In this document: in pieces, positions 5,039 to 26,632 of the stretch
Numbering within the stretch: the stretch's first letter is position 1
Layout: every line of letters begins with the position of its first letter
Source: Okeania sp.
GTDB lineage: Bacteria; Cyanobacteriota; Cyanobacteriia; Cyanobacteriales; Microcoleaceae
Length of the DNA stretch: 32,000 nucleotides
NCBI RefSeq assembly: GCF_035285525.1
Contig: NZ_JAYKGW010000090.1
Coordinates: 36,087-68,086 of the forward strand
Reading direction: 5' to 3'
Translations under genes and position numbers: made by a program
Notes under the pieces: model-generated
What the model saw: only the letters and a program-made list of their open reading frames with translations
Database searches by the model: none
What the model was told of the DNA's origin: nothing

Positions 5039-6442
5039 TTAGAATGCAGCAGCTAATAATAACACAATTTCTGCTAATTTTTGGGCTGCACCTGGTTGAC
5101 CTCGCAAACTGCGGAGGCGATCGCTCATTTCTGCCAATTTTTCTGGATGACTCAAAAAGTCTAACACCAATTCTGCTACCATTTCTGGTTGAAGTTTTCC
5201 CATCAACTCCGGTACTATTTCATCTTTTGCCCAAATATTCGGCCAAGCAAATAGTTGTCCTTTGCGCACCACAAACCAATTAATGATGGTGGCAAAAGCA
5301 GCACCGACTCCTGGTAAATTTGCCAGTAATCCTGGTAAACCATCCCATGCTCTCATAATATCTAATTGTTGAGTGGGCAATAAAACTATCATTGGTACTG
5401 CTAAGGAACCAAGTTCAGCGGTGTTAGCACCAACAGTAGTCAGGCAAATGCGACATTGAGAAAGTAAATCATAAGCAGGAGTGCGGGCGATCAATTCTAT
5501 TTCTACTCCTTCCGTTGTCACCAGTTTTGCATTTTGAATTTTCCCACTCTCTGTTTCCTGGGAAGGCATTAATAATTTTGCTCCCACACCACCCATTTTG
5601 GCAACTGCTGGATTTTTTTGCGGATCGGCAAAATTGGCTAAAGTAGGTAAGTCAAGGGTGGGAGCAACAGGAATTATAAATTTAGTTTGCGGACGAATTT
5701 TGTGGATGTGTTCAGCGATCGCTAAAGTTAAAGGTACACCTAAAGACAACTTGGTAGGTTTCGATCCAGGCAATAACCCAATTAACTCTAGACCACCCTC
5801 ATCTTTTGAACCGCTCAAAAAATTACTTCCAACTTCCAACTCCTGACTTTCCCCCCTGGGATGGGTTAGGGGTGGGTTGAATTTTGACTCCTGTAGGGAC
5901 GTTGCATGCAACGTCCCTACAAATTCTGACTTCCCCTCCTGGGAGGGGTTAGGGGTGGGTTGATTTCTGACTTCATTCATTAGGTCTCCCACTACAGTAA
6001 ATTTATCAGCATATTTTGGAGACACTTGAGCAACGACTTCCTGCTTCATCACCCCAAATTTATCTATCCAGCGCCACCATCTAGCATCCCACTCAGCATA
6101 AACAACAGTGCGATAACCCAAACGTTTTCCTACCACCACCGTAAAAAATTGGTCGCCTCCTAAAAATAAAACTACCCCTTGAGGATACCAATGCCAATTT
6201 TCTGCCGTCTGACCCCAGAGCAAAAACCGCCAAAAATATTCAGGAGGTTGTACCCGATCTACTTCTGGATAGGAACCAGCGATCGCTACTTCTTTTCCAG
6301 TAGCATGAGGACAAGGGGAAAGAATAACAGAAATTCTGATATCTATATTTGTCTGTTGTCGCAACTGTTGGACAACAGGTCTTACCCAGGTAATTAATTC
6401 TCCCGGACCATTGGAGAGGATAACAATATCAACTTTTTCCAT
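5039..6442 (-). CDS. Lipid-A-disaccharide synthase-related (LpxB-like, GT-B fold) cyanobacterial protein
   Basis: The 467-aa ORF begins MEKVDIVILSNGPGELITWVRP. From memory it resembles the conserved cyanobacterial LpxB-related family (TIGR03492-type). The central linker holds an in-frame repeat-element insertion (see 5843-5974). Confidence 0.6.
   Translation of the reverse strand: MEKVDIVILSNGPGELITWVRPVVQQLRQQTNIDIRISVILSPCPHATGKEVAIAGSYPEVDRVQPPEYFWRFLLWGQTAENWHWYPQGVVLFLGGDQFFTVVVGKRLGYRTVVYAEWDARWWRWIDKFGVMKQEVVAQVSPKYADKFTVVGDLMNEVRNQPTPNPSQEGKSEFVGTLHATSLQESKFNPPLTHPRGESQELEVGSNFLSGSKDEGGLELIGLLPGSKPTKLSLGVPLTLAIAEHIHKIRPQTKFIIPVAPTLDLPTLANFADPQKNPAVAKMGGVGAKLLMPSQETESGKIQNAKLVTTEGVEIELIARTPAYDLLSQCRICLTTVGANTAELGSLAVPMIVLLPTQQLDIMRAWDGLPGLLANLPGVGAAFATIINWFVVRKGQLFAWPNIWAKDEIVPELMGKLQPEMVAELVLDFLSHPEKLAEMSDRLRSLRGQPGAAQKLAEIVLLLAAAF
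5843..5974. repeat. Composite repeat inside a CDS: a perfect 28-bp palindrome (5893-5920) flanked by two ~48-nt direct repeats
   Basis: The palindrome is gtagggacgttgcatgcaacgtccctac. The flanking direct repeats are ctgacttYcccYcctgggaKgggttaggggtgggttgaWttYtgact at 5843-5890 and 5925-5974. The block is 132 nt (44 codons) and contains no stop on the coding (minus) strand. Related gtagggacg hairpins occur at 3437-3465 and 7747-7764. Confidence 0.8.
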
Positions 6443-6470
6443 ATCTAATAATATACTTACTAAATGAAAC

Positions 6471-6595
6471 TATAGCAATCCTAAATAGGTTGTAAGATTT
6501 TATCGTAGGGGTTTGGTATCCCAACCCAAGCACCGAGGGATTTGGTATCCCAACCCCTACAGTTTTTTCTCACAAATCATTTCATGTTGCTATAA
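6471..6595 (+). repeat. MITE-like element X (~125 bp) with tatagcaa...ttgctata termini and an internal gtaggggtt...aacccctac hairpin
   Basis: Its arms are nearly identical to the reverse complement of 14502-14634 (tatagcaatcctaaatagRttgtaagattttatSgtaggggt ... acccctacMgttttttctcacaaatSattt). It sits in the divergent promoter region between the LpxB-like and ankyrin genes. Confidence 0.7.
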
Positions 6596-6613
6596 ATTAT
6601 AGGAGAAAATTAA

Positions 6614-7099
6614 ATGACAGAATTAATAGATGCTGCTAAAATTGGAGATATTTCTCAAGTTGAAACCTTGTTGAGTGGGGGTGCGGATGTCAATGCTAAA
6701 GACTCCGAGGGTTCAACTGCTTTAATTGCTGCTGCCGAAACTGGCCATGTAGAAATGGTGAAAAAATTATTAACTGCTGGTTCAGATGTCAACAGTAATG
6801 ATAATGATGGTTGGTTTCCTTTGATGGGTGCTGCTGCTAGTGGCAACCTAGAAATTTTGCAATTGTTGTTAGATGCTGGAGCTGATGTTAATGCTGCTAC
6901 TAATTTTGGATTGACTGCTTTGATGATCGCTGCTGGTAGTGGTCATATTAATGTGGTGCAAACTTTATTAGACAAAGGAGCAAACATTAAAGCTAAAGAT
7001 AACAATAAATGGACGGCTTTAATTTGGGCAAGTTCGGAAGATCATCAGGATGTAGTGGAGTTGCTCAATAAGGTGCGCGATAGAACTCTGTTTCACTGA
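6614..7099 (+). CDS. Ankyrin-repeat protein (about 4-5 repeats)
   Basis: The motif GxTALxxAAxxGHxxxVxxLLxxGAD(V/I)Nxx(D/N) recurs about every 33 aa. Confidence 0.9.
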   Translation: MTELIDAAKIGDISQVETLLSGGADVNAKDSEGSTALIAAAETGHVEMVKKLLTAGSDVNSNDNDGWFPLMGAAASGNLEILQLLLDAGADVNAATNFGLTALMIAAGSGHINVVQTLLDKGANIKAKDNNKWTALIWASSEDHQDVVELLNKVRDRTLFH

Positions 7100-10708: not shown

Positions 10709-11080
10709 ATCAATTTTTTTCATCCCCTTGAAAAAGGAATGGGAAGATTATTATCCATTATTTTATCAATTATGAATTTCCAAGGAGGAATAGTTTTAAT
10801 TGATGAAATTGAAAATGGCATACATTATTCAGTGATGGAAAAAGTTTGGCAGTCTATTGATGTAGCAACTATAAAACTTAATACTCAACTTTTTGCGACT
10901 ACTCATAGTTATGAATGTATTGGTGCAGCTCATCAAGCATTTTATAACTCCAACTCTGAATCATATAATTTTTGTTATTTAAGATTAGAGAGAGAAAAAG
11001 AAACTAATTCTATCAAGAGTTTAGTTTATGACAAAGATAATATTGAAACTTCTTTAGAACTTAATTGGGAGATGCGCTAA
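10709..11080 (+). pseudogene. C-terminal remnant of an ABC/AAA_21-type ATPase (Walker B and downstream only)
   Basis: The open frame starts just after a TGA at 10706. It encodes GMGRLLSIILSI, a Walker B-like LIDEIENGIHYS and ATTHS. No Walker A or N-terminal half is present upstream. Confidence 0.6.
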
Positions 11081-11664
11081 ATGATTCAGAATCAAAAAAC
11101 TGAAAATATTAAAAAATCGAAGCTTATTCTTGGTGAAGGAAAAGATGAATAATCTTTCTTTTCTGCACTAATTCAACATTTAGAAATTGATGATATTCAA
11201 GTTCTTAGTTATGGAGGAAAAACCAAGCTTAACGAGGGTTTAAAAACTTTGCATTTAGTCCAGGGTTTTCGGATTTGCGCTCTTTATTAATTACTAGAGA
11301 TGCTGATGAATTATTCAATAATGCTTCTCAAAGTATTGATGGTTTTATTAAACTAATAAAAGATCGTAAAAATTTAACAATCAAAACATATATCTTTGCA
11401 GACAATAAGTCTGCAGGAATGTTATACTACCTTTGTTTAAAAGCAATTGATAGTTATGAAATGAGTTGTATTGAAGATTTTTTTCAGTGCATTAATAAAA
11501 ATACAAATAGAGAACCAAATGAATTTTCTAAAGCTAAAATTTACGCTTGGTTATCTACTCAAACAAAACCAGATAAACGTTTAGATGAAGTTGCTAAAGC
11601 AGGATATATTGACTGTAATAACGAAAAATTTAACGAATTAATAAATTTTATAAAAAGCCTTTGA
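11081..11664 (+). pseudogene. Disrupted partner gene of the ATPase (DUF3226/DUF4276-like, Toprim-like N-terminus); one in-frame TAA and one frameshift
   Basis: The ATG at 11081 directly follows the ATPase stop. Translation gives MIQNQKTENIKKSKLILGEGKDE, then TAA at 11150-11152, then SFFSALIQHLEIDDIQVLSYGGKTKL. The reading frame then switches near 11265-11277 into the frame of ORF 11275..11664. The family call is from memory of the LxxEGKDDxxF pattern. Confidence 0.5.
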
Positions 11665-11986: not shown

Positions 11987-12262
11987 ATGAAAAACATCAA
12001 CAAAAAGTTAGCTTTAGCTACTGCAATGACTGGTGTATTAGCTGTTGGTATTGCTACTCTAGGTAATAATCAAGAAGCTCTTGCTGAAAAAGAAGGTATG
12101 GAGAAATGTGCTGGTATTGTTAAAGCAGGTCAAAATGATTGTGGTGCTAATGGTCATAGTTGTGCAGGTCTAGCTAAGAATGATTCAGATCCTAACGAAT
12201 GGATTTACGTTCCTGAAGGTACTTGTCAGAAAATTGTTGGTGCAAAAATTGTTAATAAATAG
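11987..12262 (+). CDS. bufA: DUF2282 / BufA1-type bufferin precursor peptide (Sec signal peptide plus 4-Cys core)
   Basis: The signal peptide is [33 protein letters not shown] followed by E. The core is [44 protein letters not shown], which matches the DUF2282 pattern EKCYG..K.G.NDC......CAG......W..VP.GTC. It lies upstream of DUF692 and DUF2063 genes. Confidence 0.85.
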
Positions 12263-12640: not shown

Positions 12641-13540
12641 ATGGCAACCTATTTAAAATCTAAAAATTTAGAAATTGATATTAGTTCTAAATTGCAAACA
12701 AATCCAAACATTCCCTATATTAATTCACGCTCTATTAAAGGTGCAGGAATTGGATTACGTTCTGTACATTATCAATATATTCTTAGTCAAAAACCCAAAA
12801 TAAATTGGTTTGAAGTTTTATCAGATAACTATCTTTGTGCAGGTGGTTTACCACTATTTAATTTAGAAAAAATTCGTCAAAATTATCCAGTTACTCTACA
12901 TGGAGTAGGAATGTCTCTGGGTTCAACAGACCCATTAAATTTAGATTATTTAACTAGATTAAAAAAATTAGCAGCAAAAGTTGAACCAGATTTAATTTCC
13001 GATCATTTATCTTGGATATCTGTTAATGGTCACTATCTTAATGATTTAATTCCTTTGGTTTATACAGAAGAGGTAATGGATTTTGTGGCATCTAGAATTT
13101 TGCAAGTACAAGAATTTTTAGGCAGACAAATTTTGATTGAAAATCCCTCCCCGTATTTAACTTTTACAGATTCAACTATGTCAGAATGGGAGTTTATTGA
13201 AGGATTACTTAAAACAGCAGATTGTTATTTACTTTTAGATGTAAATAATCTTTATGTCAATGCCATAAATAATAAAATTGACCCCCTACAATATTTAGAT
13301 AGTATTCCTCCGAATAGAGTTAAACAAATTCATTTAGCAGGTTACGAAGCAAAAGAAAATTATCTATTAGATACCCACGGTTATCCTGTACATTCTCCAG
13401 TTTGGGAATTGTATAAAGAAGCATTAACTAGGTTCGGTGCTGTACCAACTTTAATAGAATGGGATACTAATATTCCCTCTTTTGAAGTATTAATGGCAGA
13501 AGCAAATAAAGCTGAAAAATTATTAGAAAATATAAAGTAA
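12641..13540 (+). CDS. bufB: DUF692 / MNIO (multinuclear non-heme iron oxidase) family RiPP-modifying enzyme, BufB-like
   Basis: DUF692-like motifs include GAGIGLRSVHY, WFEVLSDNY, VTLHGVGMSLGS, ISDHLSW, ILIENPS and IHLAGY. The gene sits between the DUF2282 and DUF2063 genes. Confidence 0.85.
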   Translation: MATYLKSKNLEIDISSKLQTNPNIPYINSRSIKGAGIGLRSVHYQYILSQKPKINWFEVLSDNYLCAGGLPLFNLEKIRQNYPVTLHGVGMSLGSTDPLNLDYLTRLKKLAAKVEPDLISDHLSWISVNGHYLNDLIPLVYTEEVMDFVASRILQVQEFLGRQILIENPSPYLTFTDSTMSEWEFIEGLLKTADCYLLLDVNNLYVNAINNKIDPLQYLDSIPPNRVKQIHLAGYEAKENYLLDTHGYPVHSPVWELYKEALTRFGAVPTLIEWDTNIPSFEVLMAEANKAEKLLENIK

Positions 13541-14337
13541 TGGAAGCGATAACTCTACAAAATTTATTTCTACAAGCTGTTTTGGAAAAAGATAGTTTTA
13601 GTATAGAAAAATTAAGTCAACATATTAAAGCACCGAATAATTTAACACCTGCCGAAAGTTTGGCAATTTACCACAATAATGTTGTGGGAAATTTAAGTAA
13701 TACATTAGTCTCAATTTATCCTGTTTGTTGTCAGTTATTAGGTGAAAAATTTTTTAATGCTACGGGATTAAAATTTATTGAAAAGTTTCCTTGTTTATCA
13801 CCAGACTTAGGAGATTATGGGGAAGAGTTTGCAGATTTTTTGGCTAATTTTGAACCTGTAAAAGATTTACCATATTTGTCAGATGTAGCCCGTTTAGAAT
13901 GGCATTGGCATCGTATTTTTGCTGGTGAAAATACAAATGGTTTAGATTTCCAAACTTTAGGAGAAATTCCTCAAGAAAAATGGGGGGAATTGATTTTTTA
14001 TTTACCAAAAAATAGTGTTTTATTAGAGTCTATCTATCCTATTCATAGAATTTGGCAAGTTAATCAATCTGATTATCAAGGGGATGAAGTAGTTAGTTTA
14101 GATGAAGGTGGAGTAAAAATATTTTTGTGGCGACAAGGTTATGATATGCGAATTGATTTACCTAAAGATGATGAGTGGGAATTATTAACAGTTTTTCAAG
14201 GAAATTATCCAGTTGAAATTATCTGTGAAAAATTAGTTGATGTTGAATCTGAAGTGGATGTTGGTTTGTTACTGCCATTGTTTGTGCAACGAGGTTGGAT
14301 TACTAATTTTTCTATAGTAGGGGTGGGTTTTAACTAG
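13540..14337 (+). CDS. bufC: DUF2063 family protein (BufC-like partner of MNIO)
   Basis: The start overlaps the bufB stop (TAATG), suggesting translational coupling. DUF2063-like motifs are YHNNVVGNLSNTL and FEPVKDLPYLSDVARLEWHWHRIF. The last 7 codons and the stop lie inside the 83-bp tandem repeat. Confidence 0.8.
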   Translation: MEAITLQNLFLQAVLEKDSFSIEKLSQHIKAPNNLTPAESLAIYHNNVVGNLSNTLVSIYPVCCQLLGEKFFNATGLKFIEKFPCLSPDLGDYGEEFADFLANFEPVKDLPYLSDVARLEWHWHRIFAGENTNGLDFQTLGEIPQEKWGELIFYLPKNSVLLESIYPIHRIWQVNQSDYQGDEVVSLDEGGVKIFLWRQGYDMRIDLPKDDEWELLTVFQGNYPVEIICEKLVDVESEVDVGLLLPLFVQRGWITNFSIVGVGFN

Positions 14338-16868: not shown

Positions 16869-16893
16869 AAAGAGCGAATGTAATTCGCTCTTT
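16869..16893 (+). terminator. Hairpin (11-bp stem, 3-nt loop) downstream of the CruA-like gene
   Basis: The sequence is aaagagcgaat gta attcgctcttt. There is only a short T-run, so terminator function is inferred. Confidence 0.45.
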
Positions 16894-16896
16894 CAT

Positions 16897-16959
16897 TATC
16901 AATTATCAATTATCAATTATCAATTATCAATTATCAATTATCAATTATTAATTATTCAT
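16897..16959. repeat. Heptanucleotide tandem repeat (TATCAAT) x7 plus 2 degenerate units, STRR-like
   Basis: Seven perfect units run from 16897 to 16945, followed by tattaat and tattcat. Single ttatcaatta motifs recur at ~18017 and ~21842, at the other unit edges of the cassette region. Confidence 0.95.
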
Positions 16960-16967
16960 TGAAAAAG

Positions 16968-17047
16968 GCGATCGCTCCCGATCAAAACCAGATTTAGGGA
17001 AAGCCAGAAAGCAGATTTTTTTTCAAAAAACCGGGTTTCTTAAACAA
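16968..17047 (+). repeat. Element P copy 1 (HIP1, then caaaaccagatttagggaaagcc, then a degenerate palindrome)
   Basis: gcgatcgctcccgatcaaaaccagatttagggaaagccagaaagcagattttttttcaaaaaaccgggtttct. It abuts the stop of gene B1. Confidence 0.85.
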
Positions 17048-17500
17048 TTAAATCGGAGCAGTTACTAACTCTTTCTCTACTATTTCTGTTGCTTCTGGAG
17101 GTTTTTCTGCTTCTATATCCATGAGTGCTTTTATCCTTTTAAATAAATCGACTTCTGCCGGTTCTTTGTCTGTTAATTTTTCGTAAAAATAGGGGTCATT
17201 TAACCAGTGGGGAAAAGCTATTTCTAATAAACCATTTTCCCAGAGTTTAAAACGCCAGTATTTTGATACTCGATCATCGACTATCTCAAATAATGGGGCA
17301 CAATGTTTCTGAGGATAATAGATAAAATTGTCATCGCAAATGTAGTACCAAAACTTTCCTTCTGCTTGATCGATAGCATAGACAATATATTCTTTACCTA
17401 CTGTTAATCTAAAGAGGGTTTCTGTGGTTCGATTAACAGCTGGATCGAGATAATTTTCTGGAAGAGATGCGCCAGTGTTGGCAATACAACGAATTTTCAT
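17048..17500 (-). CDS. Hypothetical acidic 150-aa protein B1 (downstream gene of the duplicated two-gene module)
   Basis: I chose the ATG at 17500 (MKIRCIANTGASLPE...) because an AAGGA lies ~10 nt upstream and the paralogue B2 starts at the same residue. The track ORF (191 aa) extends upstream into gene A1. B1 is 100/150 identical to B2 by manual alignment. I do not recognise the family. Confidence 0.7.
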   Translation of the reverse strand: MKIRCIANTGASLPENYLDPAVNRTTETLFRLTVGKEYIVYAIDQAEGKFWYYICDDNFIYYPQKHCAPLFEIVDDRVSKYWRFKLWENGLLEIAFPHWLNDPYFYEKLTDKEPAEVDLFKRIKALMDIEAEKPPEATEIVEKELVTAPI

Positions 17501-17513
17501 GGGTTTATTTTCC

Positions 17514-17822
17514 TTATTGATTTCTTGGTGCTGCTTTGGGATATTCTCGTTTGAATTTAAACTCAACGTCTTGAGCAGTTTTGCGGTTTCTGTACCAGTG
17601 GACTTGTACCGCTGCTCCATCAAGTATTAAACTATTCGTACTTGACATTTTAACCCAGTCTCCTGGTTCGCCGCCATAATTTTCGACGAGTCGGGGAGAA
17701 CATCTCAAAGGTTTTAATGGCGTTCCTTGAATTTCTATGGCTATCCCAGCCTTAGCCTGTTCTAAAAGCAGTTGCTCTTCTAAGTTATTGGGAGTTTCAT
17801 CGGGAATCGGGCCAGTTGTCAC
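17514..17822 (-). CDS. Hypothetical 102-aa protein A1 (upstream gene of the module; GTG start, basic C-terminus ending VQVHWYRNRKTAQDVEFKFKREYPK)
   Basis: The frame is intact, with a GTG start and no clear SD. A conserved TATAAT lies ~45 nt upstream. The stop is 13 nt before the B1 ATG. The paralogue A2 is disrupted. I do not recognise the family. Confidence 0.55.
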   Translation of the reverse strand: MTTGPIPDETPNNLEEQLLLEQAKAGIAIEIQGTPLKPLRCSPRLVENYGGEPGDWVKMSSTNSLILDGAAVQVHWYRNRKTAQDVEFKFKREYPKAAPRNQ

Positions 17823-17875
17823 AGTGTTGTTTTTTTTGCTTGGTAAAAAAGGTTGATTCTAATTATAAAATAAAA

Positions 17876-17953
17876 GCGATCGCTCCTTATCAAAAGCAGG
17901 TTTAAGGAAAGCCAGAAACCCGGTTTTTCCGAAAAACCGGGTTTCTCAAAGGG
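17876..17953 (+). repeat. Element P copy 2
   Basis: gcgatcgctccttatcaaaagcaggtttaaggaaagcc followed by the palindrome agaaacccggtttttccgaaaaaccgggtttct (17914-17946). Confidence 0.9.
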
Positions 17954-18031: not shown

Positions 18032-18793
18032 TTAAAAAGATACCCAAGATTTAACATCATCAAAACTCCAAGGCGAAGGCGGATTCTTATTGTAGTCAAT
18101 AAAATATTCGTATCCGAGTTGCTCGTATAACTCAGATACTAATTGCTGTAAATCTAATATCGGTTCGATATCTGTTGGCAAAAGGGGAAAAGGGAAACTG
18201 GGAAGGCGATCGCCTACGTTAAAACTGTACAAATCTGGGGTGGGGCGAGTATTACCACGACTAACTAATATACGATAGTGTTTTGATTTGCTATTGTGGA
18301 AAACTGGCATGGCAGAGCCACCTCGTAATAAATCTATTTCTACTAAGTGAGTCATACTTTCTAAGATTTGTTGTCGTTTGGCTAGATACTTCTGGTGACC
18401 TTCTCCTGTTTTATTAGCAGGGGAGAGAACTTCTACAACCGCGACTACTTCTTTTGTGGCTGTATCTTTGACTTCAATGTAGGATTGCCGGACTTCTTCT
18501 CGTAGGGGAATGGCTACTTTCACGGGTTTGACTGAGAGTTTTTGGGCAGTAATGGTTGCTGCCAGCGTAGTTTTTGATTCTCGATTATTTTGTACGCTAA
18601 CGTCTGGTCTACCGATAGTAATGGAGGTTGAGTTGCCGATTTTATAAACCCACTTGTCAGTGACGACTCGGTATTTGGGAGCGAGCGGTGGAACCAGGTT
18701 TCTAGCTATGGCAGCAACCAGTTGATTGTGGAAGTCAGACCAATATTCAGGTTGTTCGAGATAAGGATTCATTCCGGGAAATGGATTGGGCAT
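18032..18793 (-). CDS. DUF4058 family protein (Uma2/PD-(D/E)xK restriction-endonuclease-like fold)
   Basis: I start it at MPNPFPGMNPYLEQPEYWSDFHNQLV, the typical DUF4058 N-terminus. It also carries EVLSPANK and LVEIDLLRGG motifs. The 37 extra residues in the track ORF (MFKKPGFLEKTGFL...) are read-through of element P. Confidence 0.85.
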   Translation of the reverse strand: MPNPFPGMNPYLEQPEYWSDFHNQLVAAIARNLVPPLAPKYRVVTDKWVYKIGNSTSITIGRPDVSVQNNRESKTTLAATITAQKLSVKPVKVAIPLREEVRQSYIEVKDTATKEVVAVVEVLSPANKTGEGHQKYLAKRQQILESMTHLVEIDLLRGGSAMPVFHNSKSKHYRILVSRGNTRPTPDLYSFNVGDRLPSFPFPLLPTDIEPILDLQQLVSELYEQLGYEYFIDYNKNPPSPWSFDDVKSWVSF

Positions 18794-18839
18794 GGTTTTT
18801 CTGAGGTAGTTGGTTTTATTTAATGTAGCAGAATGGGTG

Positions 18840-18907
18840 GCGATCGCTTTCTGAAGACTATCCAGAAACCCGGTTTTTTCCAAAAAACCGGGTTTCTTAA
18901 ACAATTA
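18840..18907 (+). repeat. Element P copy 3
   Basis: HIP1 at 18840-18847 and the palindrome agaaacccggttttttccaaaaaaccgggtttct at 18864-18897. The linker differs from the other copies. Confidence 0.85.
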
Positions 18908-18940
18908 AGCGGGAGTTGTTGCTAACTTTTTCTCTAACGA
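18905..18940 (-). pseudogene. 12-codon 3' remnant of a third B-type gene
   Basis: The reverse complement reads SLEKKLATTPA-stop, matching the B1 (EKELVTAPI) and B2 (DKELATAPA) C-termini. It holds the same position relative to element P. Upstream homology ends where the UPF0175 promoter region begins. Confidence 0.6.
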
Positions 18941-18992
18941 TATGATAACATAATTTTGAGAAAATAAATTCACTTCTTGATTGGAGGACAAA

Positions 18993-19244
18993 ATGCAAAT
19001 TACTTTGGAAATTCCTGATGAGATGCTTCAAGGAAAAGGATTAAACGAAGGAGAATGGTTGCAGGAAATAGCGATCGCTCTATTTCAAAAAGAATTAATA
19101 ACTCTCGCTCGTGCTAGCAGGATTGCCCGAATGCACCAAATGGATTTTCAAAAGCTAATTGCCAGTCGCGGTATCTGCATTCATTACGATGTTGAAGAGT
19201 TTGAACAAGACATTCGGCATTTAGAAGAGCGGGGTTGGTTATGA
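18993..19244 (+). CDS. UPF0175 family antitoxin-like protein
   Basis: The ATG at 18993 is preceded by GGAGGA. The product MQITLEIPDE...EIAIALFQKELITLARASRIARMHQMDFQKLIASRGI fits the UPF0175 pattern. The gene overlaps the next gene by ATGA. Confidence 0.8.
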   Translation: MQITLEIPDEMLQGKGLNEGEWLQEIAIALFQKELITLARASRIARMHQMDFQKLIASRGICIHYDVEEFEQDIRHLEERGWL

Positions 19245-19639
19245 TTATTGTTAGCGATACTTCACCTTTATGTAATCTACAACTGGTTAATTCTCTCTGG
19301 TTATTGCGAGAACTTTATGGTATAGTTATAATTCCTCATGTTGTGGCTGAGGAACTTGCTGCTGCTAGCAATCTGGATATTCAAAATATTTGCCACCTAG
19401 AATGGATACAAATCCGAACTCTTAGTTTAACAAAGGTTGCTGAAAGCCTTCAGAGGAAGCGGGGATTATATCCAGGAGAAGCCAAGGCCATAGCTTTAGC
19501 AATCGAGCTTAAGGCAGACGATCTGCTTATTGATGAGCGACTCGGAAGACGAGAAGCTTTGCAACTCGGATTATCTGTTATTGGTGTATTGGGGATTTTA
19601 GTCGCTGCCAAACAAAAAGGTTTAATTCCAATGGTATAA
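19241..19639 (+). CDS. DUF3368 (PIN-like) toxin-like protein, shortened by an in-frame TAA
   Basis: The product reads MIIVSDTSPL...PGEAKAIALAIELKADDLLIDERLGRREA...IGVLGILVAAKQKGLIP. After the TAA at 19637-19639 the same frame continues PVMDTLIEEAGFRVSDRLYQRIIT to a TGA at 19712-19714. That stretch looks like the normal family C-terminus. Confidence 0.75.
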   Translation: MIIVSDTSPLCNLQLVNSLWLLRELYGIVIIPHVVAEELAAASNLDIQNICHLEWIQIRTLSLTKVAESLQRKRGLYPGEAKAIALAIELKADDLLIDERLGRREALQLGLSVIGVLGILVAAKQKGLIPMV

Positions 19640-19746: not shown

Positions 19747-19828
19747 GCGATCGCTCCACATCAAAACCAGATTTAGGGAAAGCCAGAAACCAGGTTTTTT
19801 TGAAAAAACTAGGTTTCTTAAACAATTA
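19747..19828 (+). repeat. Element P copy 4
   Basis: gcgatcgctccacatcaaaaccagatttagggaaagcc followed by agaaaccaggtttttttgaaaaaactaggtttct (19785-19818). It abuts the stop of gene B2. Confidence 0.9.
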
Positions 19829-20278
19829 AGCGGGAGCAGTTGCTAACTCTTTATCCTCTGTTTCTGTTGCTTCTGGCGGTTTTTCTGCTTCTCTATCCAT
19901 GAGGTATCTTATCCTTTTAAACAAATCGACTTCTGCCGGTTCTTGGTCTGTTAATTTATCATAGAAATAGGGAATGGTAAACCATTGAGAAAACGCTACT
20001 CTTAACAAGCCGTTTGGCCTTAAATTAAAGCGCCAATATTTAGATAGTCGATCGTCTACTACCTCAAACAACGGGGCGGGATTTTGCATCGGGTAATACA
20101 TATAATGGTCGTCAGCAATGTAGTACCAAATTTGTCCTTTCCATTCATAAAAAGCATAAACAACATACTCTTTGCCAATAGTTAATCCAAATTCTAGGTC
20201 TCTAGTGTAACCTCCATTAGGATCGAGATCATGCTCTGGCAGAGATGCGCCAGTGTTAGCGATACAACGAATTTTCAT
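19826..20278 (-). CDS. Hypothetical 150-aa protein B2 (paralogue of B1)
   Basis: It has the same length and the same MKIRCIANTGASLPE start as B1. It is 67 percent identical to B1, with divergence concentrated in residues ~16-67 and ~85-102. The frame is intact. Confidence 0.7.
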   Translation of the reverse strand: MKIRCIANTGASLPEHDLDPNGGYTRDLEFGLTIGKEYVVYAFYEWKGQIWYYIADDHYMYYPMQNPAPLFEVVDDRLSKYWRFNLRPNGLLRVAFSQWFTIPYFYDKLTDQEPAEVDLFKRIRYLMDREAEKPPEATETEDKELATAPA

Positions 20279-20291
20279 GGGTTGATGTTCC

Positions 20292-20599
20292 TTATTGATT
20301 TTTAGGTGCTGTTTTGGGATATTCCCGTTTAAATTTGAACTCAACGTTTTGAGCTGTTTTGTTGTTTCTATACCAATGGACTTGTACGGAAGCTCCATCA
20401 ATTAATACAGACTGTTTAGTTGTCATTTGATCCCAGTCTTCGAGAGAACCGCCATAGTTGGCCACAAGTTGCGAAGCGTATCTTAGCGGTTCTTTACTGC
20501 CATTAAAGATGGTCTTACTTTGCCCTTTTTGGCATCTTCTAGAAGTAGTTGCTATTCTAAGTTATTGGGTGTTTCATCGGGAATCGGGCCTGTTGTCAC
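20292..20599 (-). pseudogene. A2, disrupted paralogue of A1 (in-frame TAG plus a 1-nt frameshift)
   Basis: The GTG at 20599 gives TTGPIPDETPNNLE, then TAG at 20552-20554, then QLLLEDAKKG. After a frame change it reads QSKTIFNGSKEPLRYASQLVANYGGSLEDWDQMTTKQSVLIDGASVQVHWYRNNKTAQNVEFKFKREYPKTAPKNQ-stop. It is 308 nt long versus 309 nt for A1. Confidence 0.75.
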
Positions 20600-20650: not shown

Positions 20651-20728
20651 GCGATCACTCTTGATAAAAACCAAACTTAGGGAAAGCCAGAAACCCGGTT
20701 TTTCGGAAAAACCGGGTTTCTCAAAGGG
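20651..20728 (+). repeat. Element P copy 5 (HIP1 degenerated to gcgatcac)
   Basis: gcgatcactcttgataaaaaccaaacttagggaaagcc followed by agaaacccggtttttcggaaaaaccgggtttct (20689-20721). Confidence 0.9.
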
Positions 20729-20741
20729 CATAATTAACATT

Positions 20742-21771
20742 AGAGTTGTTGGGAAATAACTTAGGTTAGAAAAAAACTCAAACGAAAACTGATAGATTTC
20801 CTGAGTAATTTGATTACTTATGCTGCCATCAGATATAAGTTCCACGGGTACAGTTGCTGTTAGCATTAATTTGTCATCAAAATCATACTTATGATTACGA
20901 TAAATCTGACTGACAACTCCATAACGTTTCATACCCTTGATATGCGTTTTCACATACTACCCTTGATTGGCTCAATTTCCGATTTTCTAATTTTTGTTGC
21001 TCACTTAACTCTCCCCCTTTTGGTTTTTTATGGGGAATGCGGATATTTTCATACTGATGCGTGGATACCTTGGAAACCACTGTCTACTTGAATCGGAATC
21101 TCTACAGGTATATTTCAAGCGCAATTTCTCCTGATCATGGAACTTCTTATCATGTAGCTTTCCTTCTCGTGCCTGGCTCAATACCAGTACTTTCTGGTTT
21201 TGATTGACTGCAACTAAATGTTTACGAGTGTGACGCTTTTTTTTTCCCGAATAATTCAGTTTTGGTTTTTCTGAGTCAGTTAGTCGTTGCACTGGCCGCT
21301 GAAGTGCCATCCATTATCACTCGTTTTACTCCAGGGAAACGTTCTATGAATCCTTGGACACTGTTAACTTGACGCTCTGGTAGCACCTTTTTTTCTTCCA
21401 GAGCTGCTTCTAATGCTAGGGGTTGTCAGCGATGAACCCAATAATGTGCCTGACTACGGTCGATATCAAATAAGATACCAGCTCAATCAAAAGTTGGGTA
21501 ACACTTAAAGTAGAATAGAATGTCAAACAATTTGTCTTGATTGGTGCGTAAACGAGCCTTACGGCCTCCTCCAATAGAGCGTTGACGAGGTTTTGAGTGC
21601 AATGTTTGCTCATACATTTGAGCAAAGGACTCCAACAAAGATTCAAATGCTTTACGGTTTAATCCCGTTAATCCTCTGAGTAACCTGTCTGGTTTTAAGG
21701 CTCGTTCAATATTTAGCATTTTTATGGCCAATTTCTTCTTGAATCATTTTACCTTATTTCCCAACAACTCT
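20742..21771 (-). mobile_element. Decayed 1030-bp insertion sequence, IS5-family-like (PIF/Harbinger-type DDE_Tnp_4 transposase), with perfect 18-bp terminal inverted repeats and a 3-bp ATT target duplication
   Basis: The TIR agagttgttgggaaataa at 20742-20759 is the reverse complement of 21754-21771. ATT flanks both ends (20739-41 and 21772-74). Transposase fragments lie on the minus strand: LLRGLTGLNRKAFESL...GGGRKARL...FYFKCYPTFD, two in-frame TGAs, then YSGKKKRHTRKH, YENIRIPHKKPKGGELSEQQKLENRKLSQSRVVCENA and KRYGVVSQIYRN. These sit in at least 3 different frames. Confidence 0.8.
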
Positions 21772-21941: not shown

Positions 21942-24900
21942 CTAAAGCTGAATCCTAAAATCCGTGACACCAATATCCGGCGCACCCTCTAATTTAACAA
22001 ACAAACCGCCATTCCCCAAACCAGCTTTGTTACCATTACTATTGTAAAACAGTTCTCCGCTCTCGTCATTGTAAACAATAAATGCTTTGCTGCTAGCAAC
22101 CTCGGCAGCATCATCAACAACTGCAAATTCCCGTTTGCGACTGAAACTATTACCTTGAAGACTCTTGATAACTTTAAACGCGCTTTTGTCGAGAATAAGT
22201 TTGTCTTCACCCAATATAAAGTCAGTTATTTCATCGGTTTCTGTTTTCTTAAAGTCAGCAAAAATAAAGGAATCTCTGCCTTTGCCTCCAGTTAATATAT
22301 CCTCCCCTTTACCGCCATTGAGTTTGTCTTTACCCTTGCCTCCAAGTAGGGTGTCGTTGCCGTTTTTCCCCAACAGTTTGTCGTTACCGCCCTTGCCATC
22401 TAACACATCGTCTAGATTACTGCCTCTGAGAGTATTTCTACGATTGTTGCCGTTTTTAATAATGCCTTGGTTTGGGTTATTTAAGGAGTCAATTATTTCC
22501 TGACCCGTGAGGTTATCCACAGTCTCAATGAAACCTTCACCTTTGTTGCCTTTTTCGTCGAAAAAGTTGTTAATAGTCAGTTCTTTAGTAATTACTATCT
22601 TACCATTTTTCTCCTCCAATAATTGGGAAGACTCTCCACTAAAGAGTTCCATCAGTTCTTTGTCGATATTTTGCTTGATCGTAGCGATCTTCCCATTTCC
22701 ATCAATATCTATTACTAGATCGGTACCTTGACGCAAAAAGCCAGTCTTGCCTTTAGCTAAACCACCTTCAGAAAGATCGACATCTTCTAGTTCGAGACGA
22801 TCTTTACCACCAGTATCAATGATCTGACTACCAGATGCGTTTTTAGCTTGGAGTATGTATAAATCATCTCCATCACCACCGTTCAAAATATCAGCATCGC
22901 CTCCACCTTCGAGAGTATCTTTCCCATCACCACCTTCGAGACTGTCGTTTCCAGTACCACCATCTACTTCATCATCACCTACACCACCAGATATAATGTC
23001 TTGACCATCACCACCACTAATCACATCTGCTTGATTTCCTGAAGTTGATTTCAGTTGAAAATCTCCCAAGATAAAATCGTTTCCAGTACCACCAAACATT
23101 GTGTCAGCACCTTCACCTCCAGACATAATATCTTCTCCAGCATTACCCCAGATTTGGTCGTCACCACCTTTGGCATAAACTGCATCATCTCCATCAAGAG
23201 ACCTGATAACATCTGCCTCATCTTGACCAACCAAATGATTATCTTGACTGGTATCAACTAATTTTTTGCTGTTCTGTGCGACTCCAAAAATTGTTTCTAA
23301 CTCCTCTATGTCTGTTATATTTGTAGGATTCAAAACCAAGTGAGTTAAATGAGAATATCCTTCGGGTTCAGCGATGGTGTAGGTGACATCAATGGTTGCG
23401 GATGTGGCAGTTACAGTTTTAGGTAGTTTGACTTTCCAAGCATCTTTGGCGCTGTTGACGGTAATAGTTTTACCATCCTGAGTTACTTCTAGATTGCTAA
23501 TTACTAGATCGTCTAAAGTGTAGAGATTTTTTACTTCTATATCGGGATCGCTAAAGTTCTGGAGGAGAAATTCTTTGGGCAGGCTAAATTCTTTTAAACC
23601 ACTGGGTAGATCGTAATCCCAGCGAGCTGGTGTTTGACCAGGTTGACGAATATTACCCTCAGCCAAATCTACGCGATCGACTGCCCATTCGTTATCAAGT
23701 TGTATTTGAGCAGTTTGGCCGTCAGTTGTAATAGCTTCCGAATAAAAGAGACGCGATCGCTGGTCGTTACCAAAGGGATCGAGAATAGGCTCGTTAGCTT
23801 TTTTACTCTTGTTATAAACTGAGTCTGGTACGAGGATGGAGTTAACATCTTCTGTCTCAAACTTAATCAAACCAATTCCAAATAGCAGATCGACTGTACC
23901 ATCTGGTTTTGTTACTTCTACTGCATTTTCATAAGTTTCGGAAGCTCGGATCGCATAATCCTGAGAACTACCTTCCGTGTAAACTACCACATCGCTCAAG
24001 AATGGAGAAGTAAAACCATCGAAAGCTACAGGCTCCCCAGTAGTTGAAGTAGAAGCAGACATTATAAAAACGTTTTCCCCAGGGCTAATAATAGTATTGT
24101 TACCCCCGCCGGAATAAATAAAATTATAGGTGTTGGCATCGGCAACTAATTTATCATCTCCTTCTCCTAAGTGGTAGCTAACCATCGGTACATATTGAGC
24201 ATAAGATGTTTTTGGGAAATTACTCTCTAGAGGTTGAGAGGTAAATGGTTTAACTTTTTGTAAATCATTTTTAGTGAAATTGAAATCAGAGCTTATGTTT
24301 GCGTATTCAGCATTTAAGATTGTGTCTGCTTTATCAGTAAATATAACTTCAGGAATGTAGCTGCTATATACTCCGCCTACTCCTCCTGGTAGTTCTGTAT
24401 TGTCAAAGGCATCTTTTAAACTACTGAAGTCAACCCTGTTCACTTTTCCTAATGCGAACCAATGGGTTCCATCCAGAACTTTTGTACTTTCAAAAACAAC
24501 CTCATCAAATATATCGTCATCTATTCCTAAGGTTAGCGCACTCCTAATATTATCTTTGAGAATAACTTTCCGATAGGCGTCATCTTGATTAGGTTGTCTC
24601 CCACGAATTAAAATGTTTTCTACAAGAGACCAACCAATAGTAAAGGTTTGTTTTGACGGTGACTGCAAGGAATAGCGTTCGTCGCTACCTACTTCTTTTC
24701 TAGCTGAAGATCCCGCCAAGTCAGCAGAAGCTATAATCAAAGATTTTAAGTCAGCATCAATGCGATCGAGAGTGAAGAAAGGTCCACTGCGACTTTCTCG
24801 GGGATCGTAATATTTAATAAAGTTAGAGTCATCAATTTCAACTTCCACTTCTGATAAGTCGGAAACACCTATCTTTCTCTCAAGTGCTTGAGTTTCCAAG

Positions 24901-25856
24901 ACAAGAGTATATTCTGAGTCTTTGAGATTACCTGAAGGATTTAAGTCATTGCCACCAGCACTAAAAATACCGTAGATTCTGCCATCTGTGGGGTGGGTTA
25001 CTAAATGGTTTAATCCTACCTCTCCCCCTAAGTTGACAATCCTCAGAGTATGGGGAGACTTACTCAAGTCTCCACTCAGGGCAGTAATTTCACCAGGGTT
25101 AACAGCAGAAATAAAGGCATCGTAAGTACCTGGAGCGCTTTCAAAATAGACAGAATTAGTGCCACCACCCAAGTCTATAATATCCTGGTAAATAGACGAA
25201 CCTTCTGGCAGTAAAAACAACTCACCTCCATGAATATTTTTCTTAAGATAGGGATTTTTCCAACGCAAAGCATCAGTAAGAGTAATATTTGCTTCTGTTT
25301 CATTGGTGTGTAGCTGTAGGGTATCATTTCCCGAACCTAAAATATAAGGCGCTCCTCTATTATACCCAATCGGAACCTTCAGCCGATCGGGACCTTGGGT
25401 TCCAGTTAAAACCCCCACTGGTAGGTCAATAGCATAAACATCTGGGGGTGAACCGCCTAAGAAAAGATCGGGTTGGCGATCGCCAACATCACCTAAACTG
25501 GTAAAGTCCATCTTTATTCCTTCGGTGCTTGCTTGCAGCTCATCGGAAAGAATAATTCTTTCTATGTTGTCAAGTTTAGTGTTATTATTCTTGTTATCAA
25601 CTTTGAGATTATAAGATACATCTGTTCGATCTAATGATATGTCTGTGCCATTGAAATTTTTTCCATTATACACATCTGAGTCTAAGATAAATACATCTCC
25701 AGCACTTGCAGTAAATTCACTGATAGGGTTGTCAAAAGGATCTTTGTAAGTTCTGGGCTTTACTTGGTTGCTCTCGTCTCCCCCATCAACAATATCATTA
25801 CCAAGACTCAGTTGACCAGCATCAGGACTATCAGGACAACAAGTCAGGTAGTGCAA
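21942..25856 (-). CDS. Large RTX-type (hemolysin-type calcium-binding repeat) protein, probably 5'-truncated
   Basis: GGxGxD nonapeptide runs occur at about 22860-23200 (GGDDQIWGNAGEDIMSGGEGADTMFGGTGND, GGDGQDIISGGVGDDEVDGGTGNDSLEGGDGKD) and 22265-22420 (GKGGNDKLLGKNGNDTLLGGKGKDKLNGGKGEDILTGGKGRD). The N-terminal ~850 aa are unassigned. The annotated start is a TTG one codon after a stop, with no SD, and it abuts an opposite-strand gene fragment. Confidence 0.7.
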   Translation of the reverse strand: MHYLTCCPDSPDAGQLSLGNDIVDGGDESNQVKPRTYKDPFDNPISEFTASAGDVFILDSDVYNGKNFNGTDISLDRTDVSYNLKVDNKNNNTKLDNIERIILSDELQASTEGIKMDFTSLGDVGDRQPDLFLGGSPPDVYAIDLPVGVLTGTQGPDRLKVPIGYNRGAPYILGSGNDTLQLHTNETEANITLTDALRWKNPYLKKNIHGGELFLLPEGSSIYQDIIDLGGGTNSVYFESAPGTYDAFISAVNPGEITALSGDLSKSPHTLRIVNLGGEVGLNHLVTHPTDGRIYGIFSAGGNDLNPSGNLKDSEYTLVLETQALERKIGVSDLSEVEVEIDDSNFIKYYDPRESRSGPFFTLDRIDADLKSLIIASADLAGSSARKEVGSDERYSLQSPSKQTFTIGWSLVENILIRGRQPNQDDAYRKVILKDNIRSALTLGIDDDIFDEVVFESTKVLDGTHWFALGKVNRVDFSSLKDAFDNTELPGGVGGVYSSYIPEVIFTDKADTILNAEYANISSDFNFTKNDLQKVKPFTSQPLESNFPKTSYAQYVPMVSYHLGEGDDKLVADANTYNFIYSGGGNNTIISPGENVFIMSASTSTTGEPVAFDGFTSPFLSDVVVYTEGSSQDYAIRASETYENAVEVTKPDGTVDLLFGIGLIKFETEDVNSILVPDSVYNKSKKANEPILDPFGNDQRSRLFYSEAITTDGQTAQIQLDNEWAVDRVDLAEGNIRQPGQTPARWDYDLPSGLKEFSLPKEFLLQNFSDPDIEVKNLYTLDDLVISNLEVTQDGKTITVNSAKDAWKVKLPKTVTATSATIDVTYTIAEPEGYSHLTHLVLNPTNITDIEELETIFGVAQNSKKLVDTSQDNHLVGQDEADVIRSLDGDDAVYAKGGDDQIWGNAGEDIMSGGEGADTMFGGTGNDFILGDFQLKSTSGNQADVISGGDGQDIISGGVGDDEVDGGTGNDSLEGGDGKDTLEGGGDADILNGGDGDDLYILQAKNASGSQIIDTGGKDRLELEDVDLSEGGLAKGKTGFLRQGTDLVIDIDGNGKIATIKQNIDKELMELFSGESSQLLEEKNGKIVITKELTINNFFDEKGNKGEGFIETVDNLTGQEIIDSLNNPNQGIIKNGNNRRNTLRGSNLDDVLDGKGGNDKLLGKNGNDTLLGGKGKDKLNGGKGEDILTGGKGRDSFIFADFKKTETDEITDFILGEDKLILDKSAFKVIKSLQGNSFSRKREFAVVDDAAEVASSKAFIVYNDESGELFYNSNGNKAGLGNGGLFVKLEGAPDIGVTDFRIQL

Positions 25857-26529: not shown

Positions 26530-26632
26530 AGGACTTACACGGGAGGAACCCGGTTTCTCCCAGAAACCGGGTTTCTGGGTTCAGTTCAAAGGACGATATT
26601 TTGTTGAGAAACCAAGTTTCTGCGTAAGTCCT
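26530..26632. repeat. MITE-like element (~103 bp) with aggacttacac / gcgtaagtcct termini enclosing a P-type palindrome (26546-26575)
   Basis: aggacttacacgggaggaacccggtttctcccagaaaccgggtttctggg...gagaaaccaagtttctgcgtaagtcct. Confidence 0.7.

Follow-up and report, generated by a model that had tools for sequence, protein, structure and literature searches.

The window, that is the whole 32-kb stretch of DNA that we analysed, carries on its reverse strand two adjacent small genes, termed A1 and B1, which are listed together with their surrounding features in Table 1. An earlier note on this DNA had described the two genes as tightly linked, and this could be confirmed: the 13-nt gap is exact, and a Shine–Dalgarno-like AAGGA motif lies in the spacer upstream of B1, with no such motif in front of A1. 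The ATG of B1 is an internal start inside a 191-aa open reading frame. In their sizes, their gap and their shared orientation A1 and B1 correspond to two small, presumably co-transcribed genes, as found in type II toxin–antitoxin systems. The same note had taken A for a basic and B for an acidic protein. Whereas the latter holds, with a pI of 4.8 for B1 and a range of 4.2–5.3 across the B family, the former has to be abandoned, as the computed pI of A1 is 6.8 within a family range of 5.2–9.6.

Table 1. Features of the A–B modules in the analysed window.
Feature	Position	Strand	Description
A1	17822..17514	(-)	102-aa open reading frame, GTG start, no Shine–Dalgarno motif; stand-alone toxin-domain gene
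B1	17500..17048	(-)	150-aa open reading frame, ATG start; putative gene of an acidic immunity protein
A–B spacer	17501..17513	(-)	13 nt; A stop codon plus spacer: TAAGGAAAATAAACCC, followed by the B ATG
TATAAT	17867..17862	(-)	candidate −10 element, 40–45 nt upstream of the A1 start
Upstream hairpin	17914..17946	(-)	perfect palindromic hairpin, 15 bp, AGAAACCCGGTTTTTCGGAAAAACCGGGTTTCT; in the spacer upstream of A1
Downstream hairpin copy	16964..17044	(-)	degenerate hairpin copy and tail, CTGGCTTTCCCTAAA...GAGCGATCGC; downstream of B1, 83% identical to the upstream copy
A2	20599..20295	(-)	toxin pseudogene; TAG at codon 16 (20554..20552) and a 1-nt frameshifting deletion
B2	20278..19826	(-)	intact putative immunity gene, 67% identical to B1; orphan (P0046)
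Third-module remnant	18862..18936	(-)	75 nt; last ~30 nt of B and hairpin; abuts a DUF4058 gene

The TATAAT hexamer upstream of A1 had previously been reported as conserved, and we indeed found it identical in copy 2 of the module and at the same place at loci of other genomes (L001, L005, L006, L012, L014, L016). A matching −35 element was not found by a two-hexamer scan. The 96-nt stretch containing the upstream hairpin yielded a fold of −30.8 kcal/mol (z = −3.7); the downstream hairpin copy folded no better than shuffled sequence, and Rfam gave no RNA family in the whole window. The hairpin repeats flanking the module had also suggested an integron-like cassette array. This reading was set aside, because in other genomes the same spacer reads as the terminator-plus-promoter gap between tandem modules and because no integrase is present.

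Copy 2 comprises A2 and B2. A2 was matched in two frames by tblastn, its lesions being seen in the DNA alignment; the toxin of this copy would have been lost, with B2 surviving as an orphan immunity gene. The third element was detected by blastn with 84–88% identity over 73–76 nt. From the at least three local copies or remnants counted earlier, two modules remain, whereas the third is a short remnant and not a module. Comparing copy 1 with copy 2, the DNA identity was 0.93–0.96 between the upstream spacer and roughly codon 20 of A, 0.44–0.62 in the middle of A, 0.82–0.89 over the 3′ end of A, the gap and the 5′ end of B, 0.53–0.69 in the N-terminal half of B and 0.84–0.91 at the 3′ end of B and beyond. 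This profile bears out the mosaic that the earlier note had outlined, with conserved ends enclosing a diverged middle of A and a diverged N-terminal half of B. Other toxin–antitoxin genes are located nearby (UPF0175/DUF3368 at 18981–19639).

As anticipated from the sequence, neither protein could be placed in a known family. Searches with A and B against Pfam, NCBIfam, PADLOC and PHROGs gave no usable match, the only scores listed (DUF5370, E 0.064; BchM, 0.02; phrog_4927, 0.053) lying far below the cut-off, and the comparison of A and B profiles with PDB sequences yielded nothing below E 0.1. The AlphaFold model of A has a pLDDT of 86, and the model of B predicts a β-rich domain followed by helices. 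Foldseek analysis of both models, as had been suggested, returned no significant match in the PDB, with best E values of 0.12 for A and 0.29 for B at a TM of about 0.3. A RelE/barnase-like fold of A, suspected from its helix-then-sheet topology, was unsupported by Foldseek. Likewise, A showed no match to a known toxin–antitoxin toxin superfamily in Pfam, PADLOC, PHROGs, PDB sequences or PDB folds, and no DNA-binding domain was detected in B with Pfam and NCBIfam.

A profile search with A against a library of 1.84 billion proteins, in which the relatives are cluster representatives, resulted in 836 relatives at E ≤ 1e-3, 114 of them at E ≤ 1e-10. Domain architectures were counted for the best 148 of the 836 relatives, including 100 of 150 aa or longer, and in 92 of these 100 representatives the A-like domain was positioned within 25 aa of the C-terminus. 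The domain measures roughly 90 aa and stands at the very C-terminus of Rhs, CdiA-like, type VII-signal and eCIS-core proteins, and the N-terminal domains of the scanned representatives comprised RHS_repeat, TEN_YD-shell, PT-HINT, eCIS_core, T7SS_signal, WXG100_2, Fil_haemagg_2, DUF637 and PT-VENN; Rhs_assc_core was present in 16 of 92. In P0202, PT-HINT extends to residue 1595 and is followed from residue 1598 by the A-like domain. Phage-associated proteins also occur among the relatives, besides the Rhs, CdiA-like, type VII and eCIS proteins, and some relatives are fused to an eCIS core domain and encoded inside eCIS gene clusters. Full-length proteins carrying the A junction, a search for which had been recommended, were found as such Rhs, CdiA-like, type VII and eCIS tips, examples of the junction being ...KKGRIPDEQPRNLQEQ..., ...KKGPIPDEAPQNLEEQ... 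and ...RKGPIPDELPANLNEQ.... The domain family thus occupies the C-terminal-most position behind varied N-termini, and the window gene consists of the domain alone. All near-invariant residues of the family are kept in A1 (R44, Y49, G50, W56, K58, H75, N79, E87, K89). The same junction is also contained in a full-length cyanobacterial toxin (P0149), and homologues of its N-terminal scaffold end in an A-like domain, EndoU_bacteria, Ribonuclease (PF00545) or CdiA_C, i.e. in alternative C-terminal toxins on one scaffold.

For B, we identified 159 homologues of about 150 aa. A B homologue is encoded directly downstream of a cyanobacterial secreted scaffold (L083; gap of 12 nt, E 1.5e-67) and directly downstream of two Rhs proteins (L084, E 4.7e-38; L128, 4-nt overlap, E 9e-34). 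The position of an immunity gene downstream of its toxin is equally seen for the 13-nt gap in the window and for 60 distinct intact pairs with gaps of 9–18 nt, in which the stop codon typically overlaps a GG-rich motif. Variable patches of the two proteins co-vary to a degree that exceeds their overall divergence (partial r 0.42, with 0 of 2000 permutations reaching this value), in agreement with the co-diversification proposed earlier. Based on gene order and co-variation, B is the predicted immunity partner of A. We consider it likely that A1/B1 constitutes a stand-alone toxin–immunity cassette, whose polymorphic-toxin family is unnamed in the searched libraries. The core of the original interpretation, a toxin A with an immunity protein B akin to the C-terminal cassettes of polymorphic toxins, is sustained by the full-length junction proteins and the B homologues downstream of them.

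The same A–B pair recurs at more than 100 related loci, far above chance. A rival reading is a silent orphan cassette, i.e. a promoter-less or start-less spare C-terminal module that is activated only when recombination joins it to the 3′ end of a full-length toxin gene at another place in the genome, as is known for cdiA and rhs orphan modules. The GTG start of A without a Shine–Dalgarno motif had originally been said to fit an orphan C-terminal module as well, and solo toxin cassettes are described for polymorphic toxin systems (PMC3482391). The full-length cyanobacterial toxins with the same junction, such as P0149, the occurrence of the modules as tandem arrays at related loci and the homogenisation of module ends within genomes would fit as well. 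However, the first codon of A in the 60 distinct intact genes is ATG in 30 and GTG in 30, always at one and the same position of the alignment, with an in-frame stop 1–37 codons upstream. These stops, together with the conserved start codon, exclude A as the tail of a longer open reading frame. The dN/dS values of 0.18 for A and 0.17 for B reveal purifying selection on both genes, which filamentous cyanobacteria maintain as a closely adjoining small pair. Conservation of the TATAAT and of the leader extends across genera, and in Microcoleus the pair is found in one syntenic housekeeping neighbourhood. A therefore has a translation start of its own, and the view of A as a start-less orphan fragment does not stand. 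A parent gene is also absent from the 32-kb window, where none of the large open reading frames has an A-like C-terminus and A1 is not downstream of a full-length toxin of its family; nor did we find a P0149-like scaffold in about 120 related A–B loci. Considering both sides, we judge a silent cassette to be very unlikely. A 1304-aa RTX protein (21942–25856) had been a candidate parent; it contains HemolysinCabind repeats only and lacks an A-like C-terminus.

The proposal that the conserved ends act as a recombination handle may hold in an altered form. In comparisons of tandem paralogues, pS amounts to 0.26 over A codons 2–20 and 0.23 over B codons 111–150, as compared with 0.47–0.85 in the interior, reflecting ends homogenised between these paralogues, whereas between distant genomes the module ends are as saturated at synonymous sites as the rest. 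The low pS of the ends shows putative exchange between modules and not with a parent gene. Positive selection on the variable patches was unsupported at this resolution, with regional dN/dS values of 0.24–0.42.

Decay of the module affects its two genes differently. B followed A at all 42 loci of an A-first scan and was truncated at one of them (L123), the only locus of the 42 with an intact A next to a truncated B, while a broken A with an intact B occurred at at least six. In a B-first scan, about 30 of 78 loci carried B without an intact A. Decay of A beside an intact B is what one would expect of a harmful gene and its protective partner, and it argues against the idea that the stand-alone cyanobacterial A has been domesticated to a non-toxic, regulatory or enzymatic protein with B as its partner or regulator. 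Such a role could account for the long-term maintenance of the pair in the syntenic Microcoleus locus, the purifying selection on both genes and the non-basic character of A. It is nevertheless highly improbable in our view, given that none of the near-invariant residues of the toxin family is missing from A1 and that A has been lost repeatedly with B remaining intact.

The retention of orphan B genes is easier to explain if the toxin comes from outside, and therefore points to an exported toxin over a purely internal module. Accordingly worded, this alternative states that the 102-aa toxin is a small effector, produced alone, that reaches neighbouring cells either as non-covalent cargo of a contractile injection system or by another export route, and that it serves competition or kin discrimination between filaments, with B shielding the producer and orphan B shielding against the toxins of neighbours. 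Besides the widely kept intact orphan B genes, the divergent specificity patches in tandem arrays, the relatives fused to an eCIS core domain inside eCIS gene clusters and the concentration of the A–B family in mat-forming filamentous cyanobacteria are consistent with it. In the window, however, A1 has neither a signal peptide nor an adjoining adaptor or secretion-system gene, and genes of this kind are not recurrent neighbours at related loci either; we regard export of A as unlikely. That A possesses an undescribed toxin fold and enzymatic activity, and that the tandemly diversified stand-alone cassettes of mat-forming filamentous cyanobacteria are expressed and act from cell to cell, letting filaments discriminate kin or exclude one another, with orphan B protecting from the toxins of neighbours, appears to us rather unlikely.

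For the preferred reading of a stand-alone toxin–immunity cassette, we propose the following mechanism. Both genes would be transcribed from a promoter containing the candidate −10 element. A would be weakly translated from its GTG without a Shine–Dalgarno motif, and B from the motif-preceded ATG 13 nt downstream; as a motif-preceded start of B follows a weak start of A, any production of toxin would be accompanied by immunity protein, probably in excess. A may be an enzyme that is toxic in the cytoplasm, with a catalytic centre probably formed by R44, K58, H75, N79, E87 and K89. An enzymatic activity is a guess, since the model of A has no significant fold match in the PDB. Its target is probably nucleic acid, as suggested by the acidic partner and by the cyanobacterial scaffold, whose other C-termini are all RNases. 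On average, A proteins are not basic; for a nuclease this would be unusual, and it counts against this explanation. B would bind A one-to-one and block it, and the match between the two would be set by the variable patches, comprising residues 21–40, 61–70 and 80–85 of A and residues 11–30 and 41–50 of B. A trafficking domain is missing from A. The most likely place of action of the pair is the producing cell itself, where it would resemble a chromosomal toxin–antitoxin or addiction module, and paralogous modules within a genome would swap their ends by gene conversion. The toxin-first order and a B protein without a recognisable DNA-binding domain are unlike classical type II toxin–antitoxin operons and likewise count against the preferred reading.

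Although unnamed, the family is large, with at least 836 cluster representatives containing the A domain and more than 159 members of the immunity family, and naming and testing the pair would close a gap in the annotation of numerous genomes. With its 102-aa toxin, six candidate catalytic residues and naturally diverged pairs, the stand-alone cyanobacterial form offers convenient material for studying the activity and the specificity code. For the biology of the hosts, the pair bears on the question of addiction modules versus filament competition in filamentous cyanobacteria.

Among known systems, the orphan cdiA-CT/cdiI and rhs-CT/rhsI modules, reportedly described by Poole et al. 2011, resemble A–B in combining toxin-tip and immunity genes, in forming tandem arrays and in having conserved ends that are possibly recombinogenic. 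Unlike these, A–B is found without an upstream full-length gene, and A has a conserved initiation codon, a candidate promoter and a record of purifying selection. Type II toxin–antitoxin operons with the toxin gene first are exemplified by higBA and mqsRA. They share with A–B the two small, translationally linked genes, the upstream toxin, the acidic partner and the chromosomal location, but B lacks a detectable DNA-binding, autoregulatory domain, and the relatives of A are tips of secreted toxins, with no toxin–antitoxin match in PADLOC or Pfam.

Short, formerly unannotated C-terminal domains of polymorphic toxins have been reported as PT1–PT9 by Nachmias et al. (bioRxiv 10.1101/2021.10.19.465003), with PT5 found in Microcoleaceae. 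When peptide stretches of PT1, PT2, PT3, PT5, PT7, PT8 and PT9, deduced from the mutagenesis or cloning primers of that paper, were compared by eye with the conserved motifs of A, none were alike; for PT5, the primer-derived stretches REWFDSDAIRHEALT and TGNPVGGKFHTTKGEQYA are unlike A, and an identity of A with PT5 was rejected. For PT4 and PT6, the paper gives no occurrence in cyanobacteria (bioRxiv 10.1101/2021.10.19.465003). Ntox6, which Zhang et al. 2012 (PMC3482391) describe in Microcoleus with delivery of the PVC type and which is known here by description only, could be the A domain.

The closest correspondence is with the polymorphic toxin systems, in which C-terminal toxin domains of Rhs, CdiA, LXG/WXG and eCIS (DUF4157) proteins are accompanied by downstream immunity genes (Zhang et al. 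2012, PMC3482391). In contrast to these, A in the window is devoid of a trafficking, repeat or pre-toxin part, a stand-alone A with its own conserved start codon is the rule in cyanobacteria, and the A and B domains match no Pfam or NCBIfam model. Shared with them are an A-like domain at the extreme C-terminus, following PT-HINT or PT-VENN pre-toxin domains, B-like genes directly downstream, alternative C-terminal toxins on one scaffold, as well as solo cassettes and orphan immunity genes. A–B adds a new family to a well-known type of system without being a new type itself, and it leaves the picture of how polymorphic toxin systems work unchanged.

The two-gene module consists of A1, encoding a candidate toxin-domain protein of a family termed A, and B1, encoding the putative immunity partner of a family termed B. 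Both genes are separated by 13 nt, and an AAGGA before the B start is overlapped by the A stop codon, whereas inspection of the sequence upstream of A1 yielded no AAGGA-like motif. The computed pI of 4.8 for B1 agrees with its predicted acidic character; that of 6.8 shows that A1 is not basic, contrary to the earlier note. A tblastn search detected one further module in the window, where B2 shares 67% identity with B1 and A2 was recovered as a two-frame split. DNA alignment revealed that codon 16 is a TAG and that 1 nt has been deleted, identifying A2 as a pseudogene. Locally there are two modules rather than three, the third trace being a 75-nt remnant. Copy comparison confirmed the described mosaic of conserved and diverged segments as genuine. 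The DUF4058 gene seems to have taken the place of an earlier tandem module or to have split it, and the DDE_Tnp_4 fragments are a decayed insertion sequence beside the decayed toxin copy A2.

Coordinates of the modules, neighbouring features and related loci (window positions; for L-numbered loci, positions within the locus)
Feature	Position	Strand	Remarks
A1	17822..17514	minus	102-aa ORF, GTG start
B1	17500..17048	minus	150-aa ORF, ATG internal to 191-aa mechanical ORF
A2	20599..20295	minus	pseudogene
B2	20278..19826	minus	intact
Third trace	18862..18936		last ~30 nt of B plus downstream hairpin; abuts DUF4058 gene
DUF4058 gene	18032-18904	minus	E 3.5e-89; between A1 spacer and third-B remnant
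DDE_Tnp_4 transposase fragments	21005-21731	minus	between RTX gene and A2
UPF0175 gene	18981-19244	plus	between the two A-B copies
DUF3368-matching gene	19235-19639	plus	between the two A-B copies; 10-nt overlap with UPF0175 gene
MbnB/TglH/ChrH-type gene, then directly DUF2063 gene	12641-14337	plus	RiPP-modifying enzyme, E 2e-107
91-aa ORF	11987-12262		upstream of MbnB/TglH/ChrH-type gene
Two short ORFs	10739-11664	plus	match AAA_21/AAA_15 ATPases at the C-terminal end only, DUF3226 over most of its length
TATAAT	17867..17862
Palindromic element	17914-17946, 18864-18897, 20689-20721, 26544-26576		degenerate at 17018-17040, 19785-19818
ATCAATT repeat	16888-16950		~nine tandem copies of 7 nt; between module and convergent 671-aa gene
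L083			B 12 nt after 520-aa cyanobacterial secreted protein P0149; E 1.5e-67 vs B profile
L084			B 22 nt after 1679-aa Rhs protein, DNA 68% G+C; E 4.7e-38 vs B profile
L128			B overlapping 2143-aa Rhs protein by 4 nt; E 9e-34 vs B profile
L123	283-735		B profile positions 93-148 remain, overlapping A end
L002 (Microcoleus vaginatus)	5449-7012		B alone between two KGK-domain genes of unassigned function
L001 (cyanobacterial metagenome-assembled genome)	488-2152		DUF3095 gene, 15 nt, B without A, then complete A-B pair

The structure models of A and B were confident (pLDDT 86 and 87, respectively). Neither protein gave a usable match in Pfam, NCBIfam, PADLOC, PHROGs, PDB sequences or by Foldseek against the PDB. 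The decisive evidence came from searching exhaustively with a profile of the A alignment, which identified 836 representatives at E ≤ 1e-3. Among the best 148 of these, the match lay at most 25 aa from the C-terminus in 92 of the 100 representatives of at least 150 aa. N-terminal to the match, these proteins carry, among other domains, Rhs/YD repeats together with PT-HINT, haemagglutinin repeats combined with DUF637 and PT-VENN, a type VII secretion signal plus a WXG100-like domain, or the core domain of extracellular contractile injection systems (eCIS). An Rhs-associated core was present in 16 of the 92 relatives with a C-terminal A-like domain, and two eCIS-core relatives were located within contractile-injection gene clusters. 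Such C-terminal placement behind varied N-termini is the hallmark by which C-terminal domains of polymorphic toxins are defined. The junction search proposed in the earlier note likewise led to full-length proteins with an A-like C-terminus, for example with ...KKGRIPDEQPRNLQEQ... in P0149 and ...RKGPIPDELPANLNEQ... in P0166. Ten positions (R44, L45, Y49, G50, W56, K58, H75, N79, E87, K89) are 92–99% conserved over 87 fused relatives, and A1 retains all of them. Against viral models, Foldseek matched A to a "hemagglutinin" (E 4.8e-05) and weakly to a siphovirus minor capsid protein (E 0.037); MuF-type phage carriers of toxin domains have been described (PMC3482391), and these matches at most hint at a link to them.

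A clear B homologue lies directly 3' of three full-length toxins (L083, L084 and L128), marking B as the predicted cognate immunity family of A-like toxins and supporting, together with the A-like C-termini, the original toxin/immunity reading. No B adjoined either of the two eCIS-linked toxins among the neighbouring genes checked. The N-terminal 412 aa of P0149 represent a scaffold occurring in Nostocales, other members of which terminate in EndoU_bacteria, Ribonuclease PF00545 or CdiA_C, indicating that the A domain occupies the slot of RNase toxins in sister proteins.

A homologues form 26 clusters, nearly all of 102 aa, from Okeania, Crocosphaera, Oscillatoria and unnamed cyanobacteria, and at least 159 B homologues of ~150 aa occur in filamentous cyanobacteria; the window's own A1 and B1 are annotated as hypothetical Okeania sp. 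proteins. Scanning the B alignment against one genome per species and then applying A and B profiles yielded 78 B-first loci, most with A immediately 5' of B (60 distinct intact pairs, gaps of 9–18 nt). In the 60 intact genes, the codon aligned with A residue 1 was ATG (30) or GTG (30), and an in-frame stop was found 1–37 codons 5' of the start, often at the adjacent codon. A is thus a fixed-length gene, and these features rule out that it is the tail of a longer ORF. The dN/dS ratio was 0.18 (A) and 0.17 (B), reaching up to 0.24–0.42 in variable stretches and nowhere near 1; the divergence rates of A and B are similar and correlated (r 0.78). A view of A as a start-less orphan fragment is not supported, given its start, the upstream stops and its dN/dS. 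A-B could alternatively be a silent reservoir cassette, although the conserved start codon, the selection acting on the A protein and the failure to find a parent gene in the window or the related A-B loci make this less likely.

As the B-first set is biased, being found through B, the analysis was repeated with loci sought from A in metagenome contigs. B followed A in 42/42 A-first loci; a broken A with intact B occurred in at least six distinct loci, an intact A with truncated B in one (L123). B lacked an intact A in about 30 of the 78 B-first loci, Microcoleus vaginatus included. An upstream gene that can be dispensed with, beside a downstream one that is kept, matches the prediction for a toxin and its protective partner. 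The truncation in L123 may stem from deletion or from misassembly; if genuine, this locus would be a natural case of toxin without immunity.

After removal of overall divergence, the variable patches 21–40, 61–70 and 80–85 of A co-vary with 11–30 and 41–50 of B (partial r 0.42, reached by 0/2000 permutations), a signal to which relatedness and block inheritance could contribute. Tandem paralogues differ by 39–64% (A) and 27–80% (B) in these patches and by only 13–25% elsewhere. Their synonymous differences (pS) were 0.26 for A codons 2–20 and 0.23 for B codons 111–150, compared to 0.47–0.85 in the interior, and the module ends are saturated between distant genomes. Low values only at the paralogue ends indicate homogenisation within genomes, a pattern pointing to modules that undergo gene conversion or unequal exchange with one another.

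Conservation of the TATAAT and of an A-rich leader extends to copy 2 and to other genera; a simple two-hexamer scan detected no -35 partner. Upstream of A1 and of A2, a 15-bp palindromic hairpin is followed by a tail ending GCGATCGC, with degenerate copies downstream of B1 and B2, and in tandem arrays of other genomes this stretch is plain spacer from one B to the next A. The dispersed palindromic element GAAACCCGGTTTTT-N-AAAAACCGGGTTTC, followed near the modules by CTGGCTTTCCCTAAA...GAGCGATCGC, has 14 matches in the window vs 0.5 expected by chance; since it flanks the modules and is also present ~6 kb away, it is perhaps a small repeat of the Okeania genome, either mobile or terminator-like. 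The ATCAATT run, immediately 3' of the module, gives rise to a series of promoter-like matches that are spurious.

In M. vaginatus (L002–L004), the A-B site lies between amidohydrolase and amidase genes, flanked by ~150-aa KGK-domain (PF08872) genes. Several neighbouring ORF families recur in 49–60 related loci, suggesting a conserved neighbourhood, which may include these genes. In L001, GAAAACCAACTATG just before the first B ATG resembles the A-B spacer GAAAACCAACCATG before the second B. Within the window, we take the UPF0175 and DUF3368-matching genes to be a putative toxin-antitoxin pair, the DUF3368 match being weak (E 4.4e-05, below the Pfam cut-off). The pairing of MbnB/TglH/ChrH-type and DUF2063 genes suggests a peptide natural-product cluster, and the two short ATPase/DUF3226 ORFs seem to be relics of a further two-gene system.

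Sequence comparison shows that A is homologous to the C-terminal domains of toxins and B to genes downstream of A-like toxins, and the pair is demonstrably tightly linked, under purifying selection and subject to asymmetric decay; its interpretation builds on these results. A would be a putative cytoplasm-acting enzyme, with nucleic acid as probable target, and B would block it by binding directly via the variable patches; A would be initiated weakly and B by coupling, keeping immunity in excess. With A carrying no trafficking domain, the pair would work inside its producer as chromosomal toxin-antitoxin modules do; alternatively, A could be exported as a small effector.

The initial observation was thus largely correct. 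PT5, PT1-3 and PT7-9 (10.1101/2021.10.19.465003) were rejected as identities of A by eye from primer-derived peptide stretches. Ntox6, reported from Microcoleus with PVC-type delivery (PMC3482391), might be the same domain. A-B represents a new and unnamed family of toxin and immunity protein whose kind is well known, seen here in stand-alone form. It differs from classical orphan cassettes in two defining features, as it does from type II toxin-antitoxin systems, whereas it works like the polymorphic toxin systems (PMC3482391) and belongs among them.
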